Shown: piece by piece, positions 11,506 to 41,038 of the stretch
Numbering within the stretch: the stretch's first letter is position 1
Layout of the letters: each line of letters starts with the position of its first letter
Assembly: GCA_963709115.1 (NCBI GenBank)
Contig: CAVPVF010000016.1
Span: 429,986 to 493,985 of the forward strand
Length of the DNA stretch: 64,000 bases
Reading direction: 5' to 3'
Source: an uncultured Actinomycetota bacterium
Lineage (GTDB): Bacteria > Actinomycetota > Actinomycetes > Actinomycetales > Microbacteriaceae
Notes under the pieces: generated by a model
The model's database searches: none
The model's input: only the letters and a program-made list of their open reading frames with translations
Told to the model about the DNA's origin: nothing
Translations under genes and position numbers: made by a program

Positions 11506-14500
11506 TCAGCGGAAGTCGCGCGAGCGGGCGGGCGCCGACACGATGAGGCGCTCGAATCGGTCGGCCACGAGGTTGGTGACCCCCTCGGGCGAGCGTTCGA
11601 GGATGCCGCGCACGATCATCGCGGGCGCCTCCCGGGCGATGCGGCGGTAGCGGTTCCACACGCCGACGCCCGCGATCACGTTGAGCGTGCCCGACTCGTC
11701 CTCGAGGTTCATGAAGGTGATGCCGCTCGCCGTCGCCGGCCGCTGCCGGTGGGTGACCACCCCGCCGACCTCGATACGCCGGCCGCTCTCGGCGTGGCGC
11801 AGCAGGTCGATGCGGATCGCACCGCGCTCGTCGAGCTGCTCGCGGATGTGCCGGATCGGGTGGTCGTCGGGCGAGATGCCCGTGGCCCACAGGTCGTAGA
11901 CGACCTGCTCGGCCGGGCTCAGCATCGGCAGCAGCGGCGGCTGCACGACGACGATCGAGCCCGGCGAGGTACTCCTCGCGGTCCTCCGCCGCCTCGCCCG
12001 CGAGCCAGAGCGCCTCGCGCCGCTGCAGGCCGAACCCGTCGAATGCGCCCGCCGCGGCGAGCGCCTCGAGCTGCTCGGCGTTGAGGCCGGCCCGACGGGA
12101 GACGTCGGCCATGTCGCGGTACGGTCCGCGCGCCTCGCGCTCGGCGACGATGCGTTCGGCGACGGTCGTGCCGATGCGAGGAGACGTCGGCGAGCCCGAG
12201 CCGCACCGCGAACGCGCCGTCGCGCCGGTGCTCGGCCGAGCGGTCGGGGGCGTTCCGGTCGAACCGGCCGATCGGCGGCTGCGCGGGGTCGGCGCATCCG
12301 CGCATGCCGGTCGGCTCGCGCGGATCCGGCTGCGCGGTCGTCGATCGCCGGCCCGGCCACCGCCGCCGACCGGCCGCGCGTCGCCGATCGCCTCGAGCCC
12401 GCGTCCACGCCCGAGCGCAGGATGTCGGGCCGCAGCATCTCGACGCCGTGCCGCCTGGCGTCGGCGGTGAGCGTCTGCGGCGAGTAGAAGCCCATCGGCT
12501 GGGCGCGCAGGAGCGCGGCGAGGAACGCGGCGGGGTAGTGCAGCTTCAGCCAGGAGCTCGCGTACACGAGCAGGCCGAAGCTCAGCGCGTGGCTCTCGGC
12601 GAAGCCGAAGTTCGCGAACGCCTCGATCTTGGCGTAGATCGAATCGGCGACCTCGGGCTCGATGCCGTTCTCGGCCATGCCCGCGTAGAGCTTCGACGCG
12701 CAGCCGCTCGATCTTCTCGACGCCGCGCTTCGACCCCATCGCCCGGCGCAGCAGGTCGGCGTCGGCGGCGCTGCAGTCGCCCACGGCGACCGCCATCTGC
12801 ATGAGCTGCTCCTGGAAGAGCGGCACCCCGAGCGTGCGGGCGAGCACCGGCTCGAGCTTCGGATGCAGGTAGCTCACCTGCTCCTCGCCGGTGCGCCGGC
12901 GGATGTACGGGTGCACCGCGCCGCCCTGCACCGGGCCCGGGCCGGATGAGCGCGATCTCGACGACGAGGTCGTAGAAGCAGCGCGGCTGCAGCCGGGGGA
13001 GCGTGCCCATCTGCGCGCGGCTCTCGACCTGGAACACCCCGATCGAGTCGGCCCGGCAGAGCATGTCGTAGACGGCCGCCTCCTCCTTGGGGATCGTCGC
13101 GAGCTCCCACTCCTCGCCGGTGTGCTCGCGCACGAGGTCGAACGTGTACTGCAGGGCGGCGAGCATGCCGAGCCCCAGCAGGTCGAACTTCACGAGGCCC
13201 ATCCACGCGCAGTCGTCCTTGTCCCACTGCAGCACCGTGCGGTTCTCCATGCGGGCGTGCTCGATGGGGCACACCTCGCCGACCGGCCGGTCGGTGAGCA
13301 CCATGCCGCCCGAGTGGATGCCGAGGTGCCGCGGGAACGTGAGCAGCTGCTCGGCGAGCTCGACGACCGGCGCCGGGGATGTCGTGGTCGTCGGTGGAGA
13401 CCACCGCGCCCCAGCGCTCGACCTGGCGCGACCAGGCATCCTGCTGCCCGGTGGAGTAGCCGAGCGCCTTCGCCATGTCGCGCACCGCGGCCTTCGGCCG
13501 GTAGCTGATGACGTTCGCGACCTGCGCGGCGTTGTTCCGCCCGTACTTGCCGTAGACGTACTGGATGATCTCCTCGCGCCGGTCGGAGTCGAAGTCGACG
13601 TCGATGTCGGGCTCCTCGTCGCGCAGGGCGGAGAGGAACCGCTCGAACGGCAGGTCGAAGAAGATCGAGTCGACCGCGGTGATGTCGAGCACGTAGCAGA
13701 CCGCCGAGTTCGCGGCCGAGCCGCGCCCCTGGCACAGGATGCCGCGGCTGCGCGCCTCGCGCACGAGGTCGTAGCACGATGAGGAAGTAGCCGGGGAAGT
13801 CCTTCTGCTCGATGACGTCGAGCTCGCGTGCGAGCCGCTCGCGCACGTGGTCGGGCATGCCCGGGGTAGCGCTCCTCGGCGCCCGCCCACACGAGCTCGC
13901 GCAGCCAGCTCATCGGCGTGTGGCCCGCCGGCACCTCCTGCCGCGGCAGCCGGGGGCGCGCGCTCCGCAGCCGGAAGCCGAGCTCCTCGGCGAGCGTCAC
14001 CGAACGGGCGACCGCGCCCGGGTAGCGCTCGAAGCGGCGCATCATCTCGGCGCCGCTGCGCAGGTGCAGCCCGTCGGAGGCGGGCAGCCACCCGTCGAGC
14101 TCGTCGAGGCTGCGCCTGCGCCCGCACCGCCGCGAGCGCGGAGGCGAGCCGGTGCTCGCCGGGGGTGGCGTAGTGCACCGCGTTCGTCGCGAGGAGCGGC
14201 AGCCGGGCGCGTTCGGCGAGCCCGGCCAGCGCGTCGTTCGCCTCCTGGTCGAGCGGATGCCCGTGGTCGAACAGCTCGACGACGACGTTGTCGCGCCCGA
14301 AGAGCGCGACCAGCCGGTCGAGCTCGCGCCACGCGGCATCCGTGCCCGCCGTCGCGCGAGCGCCCGCCGCACCGCGCCCTTGCGGCATCCGGTGGGCACC
14401 ACCCACTCGCCGCCCGACTGCTCGGCGAGCTGCTCGAGCGCGTACGACGGGCCGGCCCTTCTCGCCGCCCGCGAGCTGGCCGGCGGTGATCGCGGCTCGC

Positions 14501-14975
14501 GAGGCGGTGGTAGCCCGCCTCCTGCCGGGCGAGCACGAGCAGGTGCTCGCCCTCGGGGTCGGCGACGCCGATCTGCGGCTCGCTGAGCCCGAGCGAGAGC
14601 TCGGCGCCGAACACGGTCGCGAGCTCGGGGAAGCTCTCGGCCGCCTCGGCGAACCGCACGATGCCGTAGAAGCCGTCGTGGTCGGTGACGGCGAGGCCGC
14701 GAGAGCCCGAGCCGGTGCGCCTCCTCGACCAGCTGCTCGGGCGTCGAGGCGCCGTCGAGGAAGCTGAACGTGGAGTGCGCGTGCAGCTCGGCGTAGGGCA
14801 CGATCGGCCCGGCGGGCGCCTCGAGGCCCTCCGACGGGCGGTACGGATGCCGCTTGCGGCTCCACGCGGGGCTGTCGCCGCCGTCGGCGATGAGCGGCGG
14901 CCCGCCCGGCCGCCGCTGGTCGGAGAGCTTGCGCTCGAGCTCCGACCACGGGATCGACGGATTGTTCCAGCCCAT
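11506..14975 (-). CDS. dnaE2: Error-prone DNA polymerase DnaE2 (PolIII alpha-like, ImuC); many frame breaks
   Basis: N-terminal PHP domain [31 protein letters not shown]. Catalytic core [51 protein letters not shown]-terminal OB region [30 protein letters not shown]. Sits directly downstream of imuB. Confidence 0.85.
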
Positions 14976-14998
14976 CGCTCACCCACCCAGTCGGGCCA

Positions 14999-16544
14999 TC
15001 AGTCGTACCTGGCCTCGGCCCACCAGCCCTCGCGGTCGCGCACGAGGAGCCACGCGCAGCCGTCGTCGTCGACGACCTGGAACCGGTGCACGCGCTTGGC
15101 GTGCTCGGCGTCCCACCAGCGCTCGACGACCGGCCACGGGCCCGCCCAGGCCCGCACGGGCGCCGCCTCGCCGCCGCCGACCGCGAATCGCTCGGGCGCT
15201 GCCGAGATCGCCCCGCGCGCGTCGATCGCGACGGTCTCGCCCCGCGCGTCGAGCAGGGCGATCGGCAGCCGCTCGCGGAAGACGCTCGCGGGCGCGAGCG
15301 CGGGCAGGCTGCCGGGCCACGGCGCGTCGCCCGTGCGCTCGGGCGGCCGGTCGCCCCACGGCACGAGCACCTGGCGGTCGGCGAGCATGCGGCCGCCGCC
15401 GATCGTCGCGGTGACGACCGCCTCGTGGCCGAGCATGCTCTGCACGCGGGTGAGCCCGTGGTGCACGCGCTCGTCGGGCCCGCCGCCCCACAGCCCCTCC
15501 TCGTGGTTGCCCGTGGAGTCGATGCGCTCGGGCACGACCCGCAGCCGCACGATCGGCGAGGCGAGCCCGCTGTCGGCGGTGCCCGCGCCCTGCAGCTGCC
15601 ACCGCACGCGGTCGACGACGTCGGCCGGCGTGAACCATCGCGGATGCAGCCAGCTGCGGCTCGAGTGCCCGCCGCCCTCGTCGTCGAGCTCGATGCGCAG
15701 GCCCGTGCACACGAGCCGCACCGCCCGCATGCGCTCGATGAACTCCTCGGCGCCCACCCGGAACGCGAACGCGAGCTGGTCGACGCGGTCGAGCGGCGGC
15801 TCGAAGTGCTGCTCCACCTCGAACTCGGGCGGCGGCGTGCGCGCGACGACCCGCGCCTGCTCGCGCCCCGCCGCACGGTCGTGCGCGAAGGCGCCGGCCG
15901 CGCCGAAGCGCCGACGCACGTCGTCGGCGGGCAGCGCGGCGAACTCGCCGAGGGTGCGCACGCCGAGCCGGTTGAGCAGGGTCGTCGTGCGCGGGTCGAC
16001 CACGAGCCCGACGGGCAGCGGGGCGATGAAGGCGGCGGATGCCCCGGGCGGCACGATCGCCGACGGCGGACTCGCGTGCGGCCCGCGCGGCCTGCTCGGC
16101 CGCGAACGGCCCGTCGGCGATGCCGACCCGGGCACCCGGCACCCCGAGCTCCGCCACGGTCTCGAGGAGGGCCGCCGCCGCGGCCTCCTCGCCGCCGTAG
16201 TAGCGTGCGGGACCGCGGGCGCGCATCGCGAGGGTGCCGGGCCGGATGAGCTGCACGCCGGGCACGGTGGCCTCGACGCGGCGCACGACGGGTTCGAACA
16301 CGCGCATGTCGAGCGCGGCGTCGTAGTCGAGCACGATGAGCCCGGGGGAGCGGTACTGCGCCTCGCGCAGCTTCAGCCCGCGCGCGACGCCGTCGCGGCG
16401 CGCGGCGGCGGAGCAGGCGAACACGAGACCGTCCTCGGTGAGGGCGATGGGCGCCGCCGCGTCGAGCCCCTGCTCGCGGCACACGGCGAAGATCGGCCAG
16501 TCGGGGCACCACAGCACGATGGTGCGGCCGGGGTCGGCGGTCAT
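14999..16544 (-). CDS. imuB: ImuB (inactive Y-family polymerase-like mutasome subunit); 1 frame break near 16080
   Basis: [63 protein letters not shown] matches the UmuC/DinB-like N-terminus. The C-terminal part is in ORF 14999..16135. Positioned between imuA' and dnaE2. Confidence 0.8.
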
Positions 16545-17275
16545 CCGGTGGCCCTCCGCTCGAGGTCGTCGAGGCGGATCGGCTCGGCCGCGTCGGCGCG
16601 GTCGACCTGGTCGGCCGGGGCGAACTCCAGCGAACGGCCCGGGCAGCCGCAGCCGCGACCTGGCGCGTGCGCACGAACTCGCCGCGGCCGGCCACGCTCA
16701 CCGACGACCTCGCGCTCGGCGAGGCGCCCGTGCCCGCGCTCGAGCCCCTGCCACTCGCTCGCCTCGACCCCGAGCCGGGCGTCGCTGCCCGGCCACTCGC
16801 CCGCGACGAGCAGCGTCGCGCCGCGCTGGCGGAGCCGGGCCTGCAGGCGACTCGACTCGGCGGGGGCGACGCGGCCCGCCGGCCGCACCGCGACCACGGG
16901 GATGACGTCGGCGAGCGCGGCGACGACGGTGAGCCACTGGCGCCCCGGATCGGGCACGAGCACGAGCCGCTCGAGGGCGATGCCGAACCGGGCCGCGGCC
17001 TCGACGCCGAACTCGGGCATGCCGGCCACCGCGACCCAGCGCCCGCTCGCGCTCGGCCCGGCGAGCAGCGCCATGAGCAGGGTCGTCGAGCCCTCGACCT
17101 GCACGACCGTGCCCTCGCGGAGGGTGCCGCCCGGCAGCACCGATTCGAGGGCCGGATGCGTCGGCACGGCCTTGGAGTCGAGCCGCGTGGCCTGCATCCC
17201 GCGGATGCGGGCCTGCAGCTCCTCGACGCGTGCCGGCCGCGGGGCGGGGGCGACGAGGGGAGCGGTCATGGTCAT
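16541..17275 (-). CDS. imuA: ImuA' (RecA-fold/SulA-like mutasome component)
   Basis: [28 protein letters not shown]...[59 protein letters not shown]. First gene of the imuA'-imuB-dnaE2 cassette. A LexA box lies 10 bp upstream of the ATG at 17275. Confidence 0.75.
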
Positions 17276-17284
17276 ACCCCAGTT

Positions 17285-17300
17285 TCGAACATATGTTCGA
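17285..17300. promoter_or_regulatory. LexA (SOS) box TCGAAC-ATAT-GTTCGA, perfect actinobacterial consensus, 10 bp upstream of the imuA' start codon
   Basis: Read directly from the sequence: agtt-TCGAAC-atat-GTTCGA-atcc, a perfect palindrome of the GAAC-N4-GTTC type. Confidence 0.85.
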
Positions 17301-17416
17301 ATCCGGCAAGTCGAGGTGCCGACCGTCCACCCCGCGTTCCGGGGCCGATCGACGACCGCACGTCGACGCGCAGCGCACGGATGCCGCGATCCGAGGATCC
17401 GCGCCCGGAAACGCGA

Positions 17417-17445
17417 GAAGGCCGGATCATCATGATCCGGCCTTC
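17417..17445 (-). terminator. Strong hairpin (13-bp perfect stem, 3-nt loop) immediately 3' of tRNA-Leu on the minus strand, between the tRNA and imuA'
   Basis: gaaggccggatca-tca-tgatccggccttc. The flank on the minus strand is TTCTCGCGTTTCC, a modest U-tract. Confidence 0.5.
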
Positions 17446-17456
17446 TCGACAACGCG

Positions 17457-17540
17457 TGCGCGAGGGGGGACTTGAACCCCCACGCCCGTTAGGGCACTAG
17501 CACCTCAAGCTAGCGCGTCTGCCATTTCCGCCACCCGCGC
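17457..17540 (-). tRNA. tRNA-Leu (anticodon GAG), class II with long variable arm
   Basis: Reverse complement GCGCGGG-TG-GCG-GAAATGGCAGA-CGC-G-CTAGC-TTGAGGT-GCTAG-TGCCCTAACGGGCGT-GGGGG-TTCAAGT-CCCCC-CTCGCGC-A. Acceptor stem is 7 bp with one G-U. D-stem is 3 bp with G18G19. Anticodon loop has U33-GAG-G37. T-loop is TTCAAGT. Discriminator is A73. Confidence 0.85.
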
Positions 17541-17653
17541 GTTGTCTCAGGCCTCGATCGCTCGGAGGCCCGAGAGAAGACATTAGCACGGATTCCGAGG
17601 CGCCTCGAACGCCGCAGGGCCGCCGCTGGCCCGCCCCGATCGCGGCGGCTACG

Positions 17654-18990
17654 GTGAAACGCATGGCCGAGTCATCCGCAGTCCAGCAGCCGATCACCGA
17701 GCTCGACGAGACCGCGGTGATCGCCCGGGATCTCATCCGATTCGACACGACCAACTACGGCGAAGGGCGGGCGAAGGGCGAGCGCGAGGCCGCCGAGTAC
17801 GTCGAGGCGAAGCTCGCCGCGCTCGGCCTCGCACCGCAGCTCTTCGAGCCCGAGCCGCGCCGCGACGAGCGTCGTCGCGCGCGTGCCGGGGCGCAACCCC
17901 GACAAGCCCGCGCTCGTGCTGCACGGCCACCTCGACGTGGTGCCCGCCGACCCGCGCAACTGGAGCGTCGACCCGTTCGCCGGCGAGATCCGCGACGGCA
18001 TGCTGTGGGGCCGCGGCGCCGTGGACATGAAGGACATGGACGCGATGATGCTCACCGCGCTCGGCGACATCCTCGGGTCGGGCTCGCTGCCCGAGCGCGA
18101 GCTCGTCGTGGCGTTCTTCGCCGACGAGGAGGCGGGCGGCGGGGTCGGCGCGAGCTGGCTCGTCGACCGGCATCCCGAGCTCTTCGACGGCGCGACCGAG
18201 GCGATCAGCGAGGTCGGCGGCTACTCGATCACGGTCGGCGGCGAGCGCGCGTACCTGCTGCAGACGGGGGAGAAGTCGCTGATCTGGGTGCGGCTCGTCG
18301 CCCACGGCGTCGCCGCCCACGGCTCCCGCCTCATCCGCGACAACGCCGTCACCAAGCTCGCCGAGGCCATCGCGCGGCTCGGCCGCACCGAGTGGCCGCT
18401 GCACCTCACCGACACCACCCGCGAGCTGCTCGCCGCGATCGCCGACACGCTCGGCGTGGATCCCGAGCAGGTCGCGCCCGACGAGCTGGCCATGGCGACC
18501 GGCTCGGCGTCGGGGTTCATCACGGCCACGCTGCGCACCACGACGAACCCGACCAAGCTCGAGGCCGGCTACAAGCACAACGTCATCCCCGATCGCGCGG
18601 AGGCGCTCGTCGACATCCGCACGCTGCCCGGCCAGGAGGACGCCGTGCTCGCGCGAGGTGCGCGAGATCATCGGCGACGACATCGAGATCGAGTTCGTGC
18701 ACCGCGACGTCGGCCTCGAGGCCTCCACGTCCGGCCCGCTCGTCGACGCCGTCACGCGGTCGCTCGCGACGCACGACCCCGGGGCGCGCGTGTTCCCCTA
18801 CCTGCTCTCGGGCGGCACCGACAACAAGTCCCTCTCGCGGCTCGGCATCGCGGGCTACGGGTTCTCGCCGCTGCGGCTGCCGGCCGACCTCGACTTCCCG
18901 GCGATGTTCCACGGGGTCGACGAGCGCGTGCCGCTCGACGCACTATCCTTCGGAAGGAGGGTCCTGACGGACCTCCTGCTCGACTACTGA
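17654..18990 (+). CDS. M20/M25/M40-family metallopeptidase (dipeptidase-like); 2 frame breaks
   Basis: Metal-binding motifs [13 protein letters not shown] and GRGAVDMKD are present, then FFADEEAGG, and a C-terminal [14 protein letters not shown]...[13 protein letters not shown]. Confidence 0.8.
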
Positions 18991-23658: not shown

Positions 23659-24694
23659 ATGATCGCTCCTGTGTCGGGTGCATCGCGCAAGGGTGAGCCG
23701 AGGATCCCGGTCGAAGATCGGCTCTTCAGCCTCGTGCTGGCGCTGCTCGCCACCGAGGCGGGCCTGCTGAAGTCCGAGATCCTCTCGTCGGTGCGCGGCT
23801 ACGCCGAGCGCTACGACGACTCGGGCCAGAACGCCAACCTCGAGCGCCAGTTCGAACGCGACAAGGACGACATCCGCGAGCTCGGCATCCCGCTCGAGAC
23901 CGTCGAGTCGCCCGATCGGCCGGGCGACAACCAGGCGCTCAGGTACCGCATCCCGAAGGGCCTGTACGACCTGCCCGACGAGGTGCGCTTCACGCCCGAC
24001 GAGCTCGCGCTGCTCGGCCTCGCCGCCGAGGTGTGGCGCGAGGCGTCCCTCTCGGCCGACTCGCAGCGCGCGCTCACGAAGCTGCGCTCGCTCGGCATCG
24101 AGCCGCGCGAGCCCGTGATCGGCTACGCCCCGCGGCTGCGCGTGCGCGACGCCGCCTTCGAGCCGCTGCGGCAGGCGCTCGACCGTCGCCAGTCGGTGCG
24201 CTTCCGCTACTTCAAGCCCGGCGAGGGCGCGCCGCGCGAACGCACGGTCGATCCGCTCGCCGTGGTGCTGCACGAGGGCCGGTGGCACCTGCACGCGTTC
24301 GACCGCGACGCGCAGGGTCCGCGCACGTTCCTGCTCTCGCGCATCATCGGACCCGTCGAGCCCGTGCCCGGCATGACGTTCGACGCGCCGCCGGCCGACA
24401 TCCAGGACCGCATCCTCGCGGAGCTCGACGAGCTCCGGTCGCGCAACGCGGCCGACCTCGCGGTCACCGCCGGGTCCGACGCCGAGGTGCGCCTCGGCCG
24501 GCGCGCGGTGCTGCGCGACGAGGATGCCGGGCGTCATCCGCCTGCACTACACGGATGTCGCGGTCTTCGCCGACGAGCTCGCCGGCCTACGGTCCCGAGG
24601 TGCGGGTCATCGCCCCCGAGTCCCTGCGCGAGGCCGTGCGTGAGCGCCTCGCGACCGTCGTCGCCGCGCACCGCGGACGGAGGAGTCGGCGTGA
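23659..24694 (+). CDS. pafB: HTH-WYL transcriptional regulator PafB; 2 frame breaks near the C-terminus
   Basis: N-terminal wHTH RLFSLVLALLATEAGLLKSEILSSVRGY. WYL region RQSVRFRYFKPGEGAPRERTVDPLAVVLHEGRWHLHAFDRDAQGPRTFLLSRI. Followed by pafC, tatA, tatC and helY as in mycobacteria. The stop overlaps the pafC ATG. Confidence 0.8.
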
Positions 24695-25759
24695 TGGCCA
24701 AGCGCTCGAAGCCGCTGAAGGCGCCCGACAAGCTGGTCTTCCTGCTGTCGTTCGTGCCGTACCTGCTCGAGCAGCGGGTCGTCGACGTCGCCGAGGCGGC
24801 GCAGCACTTCGGCATGACCGAGGAGGAGATCCGCGACGCGGTGCGCCTCATCGCGACCTCGGGGCTGCCCGGATCGACCGGGCACGTACCAGCCCAACGA
24901 CCTCTTCGACATCGACTGGGACTCGTTCGAGGACGACGACGTCATCGTGATCGTGCACCACGTCGCGATCGACGACGCGCCCCGGCTCTCCGCGCGCGAG
25001 GCGGCGGCGCTGATGGCCGGGCCTGCAGTACCTCTCCGCCTCGCCCGAGAGCGCCGGCAGCGCCTCGCTCGCGTCGCTGCGGGCGAAGCTCGCGGCCGGT
25101 GCGTCGTCGGCGCCCAGCCGCCTCGCCGTCGCCGAGACCGAGGCCGACGCGTCGCTCGGGCTCATCCGCGAGGCGGTGGCCGAGGGCCGCCAGCTCGAGT
25201 TCGACTACCTGAACGCCAGGGGCGAGCGCGGACGCCGCAGGGCCGACCCGCTGCGCATCATCTCGCAGGACGCCGACTGGTACCTGCAGGCCTACTGCCA
25301 CACCCGGGAGGACGTGCGGAACTTCCGCGTCGACCGCATGAGCGACCTCCTGCTCACCGACGAGCCGATCGGCGACCACTCGCACCGCATCGTGCCCGAC
25401 ACCCTGTTCCAGGGCTCGGACTCCGACCTCGACGTGGTCGTCGACGTCTCCCCGGCGGCCCTTCCGCTGCTGTCCGACTACCTCGCCGACTCGAGCTCCC
25501 GCGAGGTCGACGGGCGACTCCGGGTCACGCTCCGCCTCGCGCACGTGCACGGCCTGAAGCGGCTCGTCGCGGGGCTGCCCGGGCCTCGTCACCGTGGCTC
25601 GCCCCGGCCGAGGCGCGTGCGGCGGTGGCGGACTGGGCGAGCGCCGGGCTGGCGGGCTACTCCGAGCGCGGAACGGCCGAATCCGATGGCGCGAGCCGCC
25701 CGTCCCGACGACGGCTCGGCCTGACCGCGTCGCCTGCGCGGGACATCTCGTTGGGGTAG
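24694..25759 (+). CDS. pafC: HTH-WYL transcriptional regulator PafC; 1-2 frame breaks
   Basis: LVFLLSFVPYLLEQRVVDVAEAAQHFGMTEEEIRDAVRLI (HTH) ... QLEFDYLNARGERGRRRADPLRIISQDADWYLQAYCHTREDVRNFRVDRM (WYL). Confidence 0.8.

Positions 25760-40581: not shown

Positions 40582-41038
<457 letters not shown>

Follow-up and report, generated by a model that had tools for sequence, protein, structure and literature searches.

The analyzed DNA, a stretch of 64 kb in total (the window), very probably carries an ordinary, intact SOS-regulated imuA'-imuB-dnaE2 mutagenesis operon on the chromosome of an Agromyces sp. (Microbacteriaceae). The operon would be read from one promoter with a LexA operator in its spacer, the frame breaks in its genes would be assembly errors and its adjacency to a tRNA gene would be ancestral in the genus. 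This kind of system is already known. The data show gene identities, the presence and conservation of the operator, promoter geometry, conservation of a hairpin, synteny and the error pattern; that LexA binds, that damage induces the operon, where transcription starts and ends and what the proteins do at this locus is inferred from these.

Gene content of the cassette

All features of the cassette as well as a tRNA-Leu(GAG) gene are located on the minus strand of the window. The three protein families were identified by curated profiles, which bears out the completeness of the cassette noted in the first-pass annotation. The gene imuA' (17275-16541, minus strand) has 244 codons as read and was assigned to NCBIfam NF058630 (ImuA') with 178.6 bits as read and 182.4 bits after correction, at a cut-off of 65. 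Private insertions of 1 bp each near 16703, 16668 and 16644 garble about 20 of its residues before the frame is regained; in the C-terminal region of ImuA', differences from relatives are confined to the stretch between these indels.

The start of imuB (16544-14999, minus strand; 513 aa after correction) overlaps the imuA' stop codon (ATGA), and the gene contains one private 4-bp insertion near 16064. ImuB matches Pfam IMS with 36.1 bits (cut-off 23.2) and stays far under every Pol IV cut-off. Where Pol IV has its catalytic motif SIDE, the aligned residues of ImuB are TLAM, and the position of the clamp-binding motif reads HEEGLWG. By tblastn, 88-92% identity to the ImuB of A. bauzanensis was found, split over two frames.

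The gene dnaE2 (14975-11506, minus strand) starts 23 nt past the imuB stop. As read, it is broken by private 1-bp insertions into about 11 frame pieces, which match NF004225 in all three frames. The corrected DnaE2 of 1153 aa reaches 1453 bits (cut-off 939) over profile positions 3-1047 of 1047, is equal in length to the A. ramosus protein and has no internal stops. Because of the ATGA overlap, the 23-nt gap and the lack of a second LexA box in the window, imuA', imuB and dnaE2 are predicted to form a single tricistronic operon with one promoter for all three genes. Genes for lexA and recA are absent from the 64-kb window.

LexA operator and promoter

The LexA (SOS) operator is a perfect 16-mer palindrome, TCGAAC-ATAT-GTTCGA (TCGAACATATGTTCGA), at 17285-17300 (no strand assigned), identified by exact match and conservation. 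It is the sole exact match in the window, with 0.01 matches expected by chance and one match-bearing sequence among 100 shuffles. The 12-nt core GAAC-N4-GTTC by itself is not significant in the window (0.65 expected; 51 of 100 shuffles). The imuA' ATG at 17275 is located 10 nt past the box and 180 nt from the tRNA gene, both distances agreeing with those given earlier.

Of 85 fetched loci, 67 have a perfect box directly ahead of imuA', and most of the others carry one to two mismatches. It agrees with the experimentally defined mycobacterial consensus (PMC3381160). The earlier reading of a LexA-operated SOS module is supported by this comparative evidence, as about 80 orthologous loci, spread over more than 10 genera, have the box at a fixed place within the core promoter.

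The consensus scan of the window (9-of-12 match) called no promoter, and the hexamers of the locus itself are weak (TTGCCG and GAAACT); for this reason, the promoter assignment is a comparative one. The predicted -35 hexamer TTGCCG is located at 17304-17309 (minus strand), and all but one of the 67 distinct orthologous promoters have TTGnnn 3 nt ahead of the box; in sister genera this hexamer is TTGACA. The predicted -10 hexamer GAAACT (17281-17286, minus strand) lies 17 nt past the -35 and overlaps the final two bases of the LexA box. It corresponds to GAnnnT in all 67 distinct promoters; the second base (A) and the sixth (T) never change, and positions 3-5 vary. In these 67 promoters the LexA box fills the 17-nt spacer between -35 and -10, and in 56 of them the first ORF-opening start codon follows 5-6 nt past the -10. 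The position of the box in the spacer together with the short distance to the start codon implies that LexA occludes a tricistronic operon with no or almost no leader.

Upstream of the -35, a conserved block was detected at 17318-17344 (minus strand) by conservation, in which a small GC hairpin, CCCCGgaacgCGGGG (17344-17330), precedes GGACGGTCGGC (17328-17318). This element might be a second, PafBC-like regulatory input. A dual control by LexA repression and an activator at this block, most plausibly PafBC, would parallel the mycobacterial SOS/PafBC control and is possible, though on the whole unlikely. It is favored by the motif GGAC-N3-YGGC, which keeps a fixed offset in 57 Agromyces promoters amid variable neighboring sequence, the sequence further upstream not being conserved. 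Sister genera carry TGTCGG-N10-CATATT, as in TGTCGGtGGCaaTTGACATATT, at the same place, which resembles the mycobacterial PafBC/RecA-NDp pattern and, apart from one mismatch in its -10 part, fits it. TGTCGG-N10-TAnnnT, the spaced form used here, is reportedly the RecA-NDp consensus of Gamulin et al. 2004. An exact match to this spaced form, TGTCGG-N10-TACCCT, is located at 2702-2723, 8 nt ahead of a helicase-like ORF, so that the motif family may be in use in this genome, and the pafBC genes are found 6 kb from the cassette promoter. However, the element in the window reads GGTCGG instead of TGTCGG, its distance to the box exceeds that in sister genera by 3 nt, TAnnnT is missing where the spacing would require it, and the motif count across the window is at chance level (4 found, 3.3 expected). 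The PafBC motif of mycobacteria comprises 22 nt with a conserved 5' TGTCGG, and mycobacterial imuA'/B is PafBC-dependent as well, both pathways being needed for expression (PMC8682763). Because of this co-regulation, control by LexA only may be incomplete here too.

The tRNA-Leu(GAG) neighborhood

The tRNA-Leu(GAG) gene reported close to the cassette was verified with ARAGORN and Rfam (RF00005, 50.5 bits at a gathering score of 29). It encodes an 85-nt class II tRNA at 17540-17456 (minus strand), has the same direction as the cassette and is divergent from the M20 peptidase gene. The first-pass annotation had asked whether the position next to this tRNA is conserved or acquired and had suggested a synteny comparison. 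This was carried out: an identical or nearly identical tRNA-Leu(GAG) is located upstream of imuA' in 57 of 57 Agromyces loci, and all of them share the gene order FKBP-TrmI-HAD-PAC2-BacA-M20-tRNA-Leu(GAG)-cassette.

That the cassette is a genomic island, inserted by site-specific integration at the 3' end of the tRNA, and that the adjacency marks horizontal acquisition is improbable. It is true that tRNA and cassette are co-oriented, with 180 nt between the tRNA 3' end and the cassette start, and that the segment between tRNA and imuA' differs from one Agromyces species to another in length (104 nt to 3.8 kb) and in cargo genes. Furthermore, 24 loci of other Microbacteriaceae genera have no tRNA within 6 kb of the cassette and different flanks, and in one relative no cassette is found up to 10 kb from the M20-tRNA-Leu pair. 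Erill et al. 2006 (NAR) are also said to have found that the cassette moved during bacterial evolution. Against this stand the arrangement in every Agromyces locus, the lack of an integrase or recombinase in the window flanks or any inserted segment, the lack of a direct repeat of the tRNA 3' end anywhere in the window and a cassette G + C content (0.73-0.77) equal to that of the surroundings. Cassette identity also co-varies with the identity of the flanking genes (Spearman 0.59, 0.87 and 0.46). In Leifsonia, the M20-tRNA-Leu pair is likewise present and the cassette lies in the same neighborhood, yet 5.7 kb from the tRNA, which suggests local rearrangement over tRNA-targeted insertion. Because of the genus-wide arrangement, the lack of an integrase, att-like repeat or G + C anomaly and a cassette divergence that tracks the flanks, the position is regarded as genus-conserved: judged by synteny, the adjacency is inherited across Agromyces and no sign of recent insertion. 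An ancient integration at the root of the genus is conceivable.

Between tRNA and cassette, a 13-bp hairpin had been described at 17417-17445 as a terminator or insulator. The hairpin is real, but its stem is longer and stronger than claimed, comprising 16 bp (17448-17433/17429-17414, minus strand) with a TGA loop, followed by GCGTTTCC at 17413-17406. The resulting intrinsic-terminator-like structure (17448-17406) has a minimum free energy of -35.5 kcal/mol (z = -5.9), and none of 200 shuffles folds as well. The simple terminator scan of the window did not call it because of the short T-tract; the assignment as a terminator therefore rests on comparative conservation. In every Agromyces locus a hairpin of -27 to -39 kcal/mol follows 7-9 nt past the tRNA, and compensatory changes occur in 4 of 13 stem pairs. 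A regulatory element of the cassette (an attenuator or protein-binding palindrome) would suit the location between tRNA and cassette, the unusual length of 16 bp and the weak T-tract, but is very improbable, as the hairpin keeps its distance to the tRNA 3' end even where 0.9-3.8 kb of genes precede imuA', and in such species the promoter/operator block moves with imuA' and has no hairpin of its own. Since the hairpin stays with the tRNA where other genes part it from the cassette, its interpretation as the tRNA gene's own terminator is supported, which sharpens the earlier proposal.

Frame breaks and assembly quality

The cassette had been described as frame-broken. The breaks are real in the sequence, but not specific to the cassette: by tblastn, frame switches were found in nearly all neighboring genes. 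A five-way alignment over 12.8 kb revealed 45 frameshifting (non-triplet) indels private to the window, compared with one in the closest type-strain genome, four in a second isolate and 8-11 in two other MAGs. Against A. ramosus, 54 indel events were counted, of which 36 are 1-bp insertions, mostly outside homopolymers. By position, 21 of them fall within the 5.8 kb of the cassette and 28 within 6.9 kb of flanking sequence. Removal of the indels results in stop-free ORFs of 243, 513 and 1153 aa (A. ramosus: 242, 513 and 1153 aa); since these are of full length and pass the curated family cut-offs, the genes are read as intact.

Decay of the cassette into a pseudogene cluster with loss of inducible mutagenesis, for which the two frames of imuB, the roughly 11 of dnaE2 and the identical garbled ImuA' segment in the public protein P0001 could be cited, is extremely unlikely, because the indels are equally dense in flanking genes including conserved housekeeping genes such as trmI, pafB/pafC and the M20 peptidase gene, neither stop codons nor large deletions are left after their removal, each piece of the corrected proteins shares 88-97% identity with relatives, and poly-A/poly-T junk (tracts of about 45 T, 210 A and 100 A) is present elsewhere in the window. 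The shared segment in P0001 means that the errors sit in the deposited sequence, beyond the copy in this window. By these alignments, the frame breaks are single-base assembly errors and not gene decay, and the genes should be intact in the organism. The assembly is presumably a long-read MAG.

Comparison with known systems and proposed mechanism

The same three protein families make up the mutasome of M. tuberculosis (imuA'-imuB, Rv3395c-Rv3394c; dnaE2, Rv3370c), namely the Rv3395c-type ImuA', the catalytically dead Y-family ImuB and the error-prone C-family DnaE2. Both systems share the LexA consensus TCGAAC-N4-GTTCGA and an operator that overlaps the core promoter, with the start codon within about 10 nt. 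The top-ranking LexA ChIP-seq peak of M. tuberculosis is that of Rv3395c, whose transcription starts within the SOS box, 7 bp ahead of the start codon (PMC3381160); the imuA' and imuB genes are organized as an operon (PMC10421592). Here the three genes are contiguous behind one operator, whereas dnaE2 of M. tuberculosis has a box of its own elsewhere in the genome. The clamp-binding position of ImuB reads HEEGLWG here and QLPLWG in M. tuberculosis, the mycobacterial PafBC site (PMC8682763) has no clear counterpart in the window, and the tRNA-Leu(GAG) neighbor is Agromyces-specific.

The proteobacterial imuA-imuB-dnaE2 (imuC) cassette of Caulobacter, Pseudomonas and Myxococcus is a contiguous LexA-controlled three-gene operon too; its gene order (accessory protein, dead Y-family polymerase, DnaE2) and presumed function match those of the cassette described here. 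It differs in its first gene, a RecA-like ImuA in place of the actinobacterial ImuA', and in its LexA-box consensus. This comparison is partly based on the cassette as reportedly described by Erill et al. 2006 and Galhardo et al. 2005. The umuDC operon of E. coli (Pol V mutasome) is a functional analogue, being an SOS-repressed operon for an inducible error-prone translesion system; however, its polymerase, the active Y-family UmuC, is unrelated in role, activation proceeds through UmuD cleavage and RecA, and a DnaE2 homologue is lacking.

In the proposed mechanism, bound LexA would occlude RNA polymerase at the imuA' promoter until DNA damage leads to RecA-stimulated self-cleavage of LexA. 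The freed promoter would then give rise to an mRNA with little or no leader, on which imuA' and imuB would be translationally coupled via the ATGA overlap, with dnaE2 23 nt on. The tRNA-Leu(GAG) gene would be a separate constitutive transcription unit ended by its strong hairpin, and the repressed operon would thus be shielded from read-through. The products may assemble as an ImuA'-ImuB-DnaE2 translesion complex, in which ImuB, a Y-family protein without catalytic activity, would serve as adaptor to the beta clamp and error-prone synthesis would fall to the polymerase DnaE2.

Organization of the imuA'-imuB-dnaE2 locus

The window has a G + C content of about 72%, and its best protein matches all belong to the genus Agromyces of the family Microbacteriaceae. 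The first-pass annotation had described a tRNA-Leu(GAG) gene, a hairpin, a LexA box and the three genes of an error-prone polymerase cassette, and all of these elements could be found as described, with the correction that they all lie on the minus strand. The tRNA-Leu(GAG) gene (17540-17456) is followed after 7 nt by the hairpin (17448-17433 paired with 17429-17414, TGA loop, tail GCGTTTCC), whose perfect stem measures 16 bp instead of the 13 bp stated initially and which folds with -35.5 kcal/mol (z = -5.9). A spacer of about 110 nt separates the hairpin from the LexA palindrome TCGAACATATGTTCGA (17300-17285), located 9 nt before the ATG start codon of imuA' (17275). The start of imuB (16544) overlaps the imuA' stop codon (ATGA), and dnaE2 (14975 to 11506) starts 23 nt past the stop codon of imuB. 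Because of this tight arrangement and the single box in the window, imuA', imuB and dnaE2 most likely form one LexA-controlled operon. Downstream of dnaE2, the search for a terminator revealed no fold better than those of shuffled sequences (z = 0.0).

Frame breaks in the cassette

When the window was searched by tblastn with proteins taken from an assembly of Agromyces bauzanensis, one frame switch was seen in imuB and about 11 in dnaE2. Frame switches were also detected outside the cassette, namely in the pafB and pafC-like genes, trmI and the genes for the HAD hydrolase, the M20 peptidase, the MFS transporter, DUF3097 and VIT1. In a pairwise comparison with the genome of the A. ramosus type strain, which is 94% identical to the window, the 54 indel events found over 12.8 kb include 36 insertions of one base in the window. 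Counted from the listed positions, the cassette contains 21 indels per 5.8 kb and the flanks contain 28 per 6.9 kb. In a five-way alignment, 45 frameshifting indels are private to the window; the corresponding numbers are one for A. ramosus, four for a second isolate genome and 8-11 for two metagenome-assembled relatives. Deletion of the non-triplet indels alone restored stop-free ORFs of 243, 513 and 1153 aa, which compare with 242, 513 and 1153 aa in A. ramosus. A public protein identical to the ImuA' of the window has the same garbled stretch of 20 residues, so the errors belong to the deposited assembly.

The frame breaks in the cassette are errors of this assembly. A decay of the cassette into pseudogenes, as the broken frames could be read, was rejected since the flanks are equally broken, the indels are private to the window and the corrected ORFs have full length. 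An origin of the indels in homopolymers was ruled out by the A. ramosus comparison, in which the majority of the inserted bases lie outside of runs.

Elsewhere in the window, at 40585-41035, about 45 T in a row directly precede about 210 A, and a further stretch of about 100 A occupies 40935-41035. These tracts sit in a local dip of the G + C content to 0.54 in a genome of 72% G + C; they are almost certainly assembly junk, not native to such an actinobacterium, and fit the error-rich sequence. Split genes in the same region were also observed in four metagenome-assembled genomes labelled MFD... (loci L006, L009, L019 and L055), one of which, L009, is the nearest relative of the window among the fetched loci (96.1% identity). 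This suggests a common origin of such errors in long-read metagenome assemblies. For work with the present assembly, a rate of about 3.5 spurious single-base indels per kb is to be expected.

Protein families of the corrected products

The corrected ImuA', an accessory protein of the Rv3395c type encoded by the first gene of the cassette, matches NCBIfam NF058630 over profile positions 1-153 of 153 with 182.4 bits (cut-off 65), and its homologues bear PF27531. The corrected DnaE2 matches the whole profile of NF004225 ("error-prone DNA polymerase") with 1453 bits (cut-off 939); with the model of the replicative DnaE (NF004226) it reaches 699 bits, which is below the cut-off of 1002. For ImuB, the Pfam IMS domain was detected with 36.1 bits (cut-off 23.2), whereas the best Pol IV models gave 47 bits at cut-offs of 256-399. 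By these scores, ImuB is assigned to the Y-family polymerase fold as an orthologue of neither Pol IV nor UmuC.

A search of the PDB sequences with ImuB returned zero matches at E ≤ 0.01 and just weak Pol IV alignments at E ≤ 10. In the weak alignment with the Pol IV structure 7yll_A (E = 0.02), the catalytic SIDE motif faces T-L-A-M of the ImuB of the window, which is suggestive rather than firm for a protein lacking the catalytic carboxylates of active Y-family polymerases. The clamp-binding motif of M. tuberculosis ImuB is 352-QLPLWG-357 (PMC10421592). At this position, the ImuB of the window carries HEEGLWG (residues 346-352), which is conserved as HExGLWG across Microbacteriaceae; judged from the sequence alone, the two motifs have the LWG core in common and the leading Q is missing. 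A requirement of all three genes for damage-induced mutagenesis was demonstrated in mycobacteria only (Warner et al., 2010, cited in PMC10421592).

LexA operator and promoter of imuA'

The exact 16-mer of the LexA box, which corresponds to the consensus TCGAAC-N4-GTTCGA defined in PMC3381160, occurs once in the window, with a chance expectation of 0.01 and one occurrence in 100 shuffles; the 12-nt core GAAC-N4-GTTC by itself is not significant. No further GAAC-N4-GTTC was found in the window, which therefore contains no lexA or recA promoter with such a box. Allowing up to two mismatches to the LexA box, 17 sites were counted in the window compared to 4.6 expected from shuffles, among them the only two sites with one mismatch, inside dnaE2 (13643-13658) and inside the pafB-like gene (23840-23855). 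The excess of near matches may be an effect of codon usage or periodicity that is lost in dinucleotide shuffles, rather than a sign of real operators.

For the comparison of promoters, 85 loci were collected, 80 of them by scanning a collection with an alignment of ImuA' and five by context look-ups. Of these 85 loci, 67 have a perfect box immediately before imuA', and most of the others have a box with one or two mismatches. The geometry was counted in 67 distinct promoter sequences. In 66 of them a TTGnnn hexamer lies 3 nt before the box (TTGCCG in the window, TTGACA in sister genera), and in all 67 the hexamer beginning with the last two bases of the box is GAnnnT, with invariant A and T at positions 2 and 6 and variable positions 3-5. 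This pattern can be read as the signature of a -10 element. The spacing between the -35 and -10 hexamers is exactly 17 nt, the geometry of -35 hexamer, box and -10 hexamer is fixed, and the first start codon opening an ORF follows 5-6 nt past GAnnnT in 56 of the 67 sequences. A scan of 17150-17700 for consensus promoters and terminators yielded nothing at threshold; the hexamers of the window itself are weak, and both the promoter and the terminator are proposed here by comparison.

Because the operator takes up the spacer and extends into the -10 element, LexA bound to it should exclude RNA polymerase, and the imuA' transcript should be leaderless or nearly leaderless. In M. tuberculosis, LexA gives its strongest ChIP-seq peak at Rv3395c (imuA'), whose TSS is located inside the SOS box at 7 bp ahead of the start codon (PMC3381160); the promoter proposed for the window agrees with this placement. 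For Microbacteriaceae, the comparative map of -35 hexamer, operator in the spacer, overlapping -10 hexamer and leaderless start provides a testable model of the shut-off by LexA.

Conservation of the tRNA-Leu(GAG) neighbourhood

Whether the position of the cassette next to the tRNA gene is conserved or acquired had been raised in the first-pass annotation, and the synteny comparison proposed there showed conservation. All 57 Agromyces loci share the gene order FKBP-TrmI-HAD-PAC2-BacA-M20-tRNA-Leu(GAG)-imuA'-imuB-dnaE2, followed by an MFS or DUF3097 gene. The segment between tRNA-Leu(GAG) and imuA' varies from 104 nt to 3.8 kb and contains, depending on the species, a divergent gene with an MCGRF start, a membrane protein gene or an oxidoreductase gene. 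The gene starting with MCGRFV... was observed in several Agromyces species (L021, 2408-3244; L023; L026; L034-L036; L042, 5195-5905; minus strand in locus coordinates), where it lies between tRNA-Leu and imuA' and points away from the promoter region with the LexA box; the window lacks this gene. Its product is presumably of the SRAP type (SOS-response-associated peptidase, YedK/HMCES-like).

The M20-tRNA-Leu(GAG) junction predates the genus Agromyces. It is also present in Leifsonia, with seven other genes between the tRNA gene and the cassette at a distance of 5.7 kb, and in a further relative without a cassette inside 10 kb. At 24 loci of other genera, the cassette and the box have different flanks and no tRNA gene within 6 kb. 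In two Leifsonia loci, the block between tRNA-Leu and the cassette contains a second perfect LexA box (L083, 6036-6051; L084, 6048-6063), flanked by a DUF6504 gene and by a divergent gene that encodes about 170 aa and has no family assignment. In Microterricola pindariensis (L057), two identical tRNA-Leu(GAG) genes (1128-1212 and 2117-2201) lie about 1 kb apart adjoining M20, and this pair is separated from the cassette by other genes over about 3.8 kb, among them an ORF of 474 aa without family assignment. Two tRNA-Leu(GAG) copies seemed to flank the cassette at the Agromyces locus L042, but the downstream call is unrelated in sequence to the real tRNA, lies inside the DUF3097 gene and was taken as a false positive of ARAGORN.

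The G + C content of the cassette (0.73-0.77) equals that of the flanks, without any anomaly, and protein identities in the cassette correlate with those in the flanking genes (Spearman 0.59, 0.87 and 0.46). No integrase or recombinase was found in the genes to either side of the cassette in the window or in the 0.4-4.8 kb segments between tRNA and imuA' of 16 loci. In the window, the 3' end of the tRNA (26 nt or 17 nt, up to three mismatches) matched the tRNA itself and one site at chance level (6891), and the direct-repeat search for att sites returned GC-rich chance families only. The synteny within Agromyces, the lack of att sites and integrases, the inconspicuous G + C content and the co-divergence with the flanks indicate that the adjacency of tRNA and cassette is an inherited, genus-wide arrangement. 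It was probably produced by local rearrangement, an ancient insertion of the cassette at the root of the genus being a less probable origin. An integrative island targeted to the tRNA gene is improbable, as neither an integrase nor an att repeat, patchy presence or deviant composition was found.

The hairpin downstream of the tRNA gene

At each Agromyces locus, a hairpin with a folding energy of -27 to -39 kcal/mol lies 7-9 nt past the tRNA gene and is followed by a short T-run; compensatory changes were seen in 4 of 13 pairs. Where tRNA and imuA' are separated by 0.9-3.8 kb of other genes, the hairpin remains with the tRNA, and the block of promoter and operator remains with imuA'. The tail in the window (GCGUUUCC) has only three consecutive U and falls short of the rule of the terminator scanner, which asks for five or more T in 8; in Actinobacteria, it is common for terminators to have short U-tracts. 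The hairpin is best read as the terminator of the tRNA gene, which matches the initial description as an insulator or terminator. As a side effect, it would shield the repressed operon from read-through of tRNA transcription.

A possible second input by PafBC

Upstream of the -35 hexamer, the element GGAC-N3-YGGC is conserved in Agromyces promoters (17328-17318 in the window). It is part of a region on the minus strand (17318-17344) that consists of a small GC hairpin (CCCCGgaacgCGGGG) and a block conserved across Agromyces (GGACGGTCGGC); the hairpin (17344-17330) directly precedes the block in two Agromyces subclades, including that of the window. Sister genera carry TGTCGGtGGCaaTTGACATATT at this place, which resembles the PafBC (RecA-NDp) motif and nearly matches its pattern. 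The PafBC motif comprises 22 nt with a conserved 5' TGTCGG, and the expression of mycobacterial imuA'/B depends on LexA and PafBC (PMC8682763).

The element of the window reads GGTCGG, is shifted by 3 nt and has no correctly spaced TAnnnT, and thus departs from the PafBC pattern. The RecA-NDp consensus is reportedly TGTCGG-N10-TAnnnT (Gamulin et al., 2004). In the whole window, the RecA-NDp pattern occurs no more often than by chance, without a match at imuA'. One exact fit to the consensus in this form, TGTCGGGCCCCTCCGCTACCCT, was observed at 2702-2723 on the plus strand, 8 nt before a GTG codon at 2731. The ORF starting there is fragmented by frameshifts and, with the motifs GAGKT and DEVHH, looks by eye like a superfamily-2 helicase; the site may be a putative leaderless DNA-damage promoter of the PafBC type.

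Tandem genes for pafB and pafC-like WYL regulators, whose Pfam labels were taken from the A. bauzanensis orthologues, are located on the plus strand at 23671-25583, about 6 kb from the operon, and are followed by tatA. In Agromyces and Leifsonia, pafBC-like genes, M20, tRNA-Leu and the cassette are kept within 6-12 kb. As the element of the window deviates from the PafBC pattern, dual control of its imuA' by LexA and PafBC is only a hypothesis. It would be a bold and rather improbable reading that the imuA' promoter of Microbacteriaceae combines, within about 60 bp, an upstream activator site, a -35 hexamer, a LexA operator in the spacer and the -10 element of a leaderless tricistronic transcript. 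The activator site, GGAC-N3-YGGC in Agromyces and of the TGTCGG type in sister genera, may serve as a binding site for PafBC, which is encoded at a distance of 6 kb.

Significance of the locus

By each testable criterion, the locus can be classified as a family member of the LexA-regulated ImuA'-ImuB-DnaE2 mutasome of mycobacteria, and the cassette is nothing new in kind. In M. tuberculosis, dnaE2 is located at a separate place with its own box, whereas the window has three contiguous genes with one box. Contiguous imuA-imuB-dnaE2 cassettes with a layout like that of the window reportedly exist in other phyla (Erill et al., 2006). The significance lies mostly in the annotation: what looks like gene decay stems from assembly errors, the Agromyces cassette is a complete mutasome operon with predicted control by LexA, and the tRNA neighbourhood is conserved and not a trace of acquisition. 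If the two-input arrangement holds true, it would be a minimal switch of repressor and activator for induced mutagenesis, and its compact geometry would differ from the two separated promoters reported for M. tuberculosis. The conserved upstream block is the place to test the mycobacterial co-regulation by PafBC and the SOS response in other Actinobacteria.
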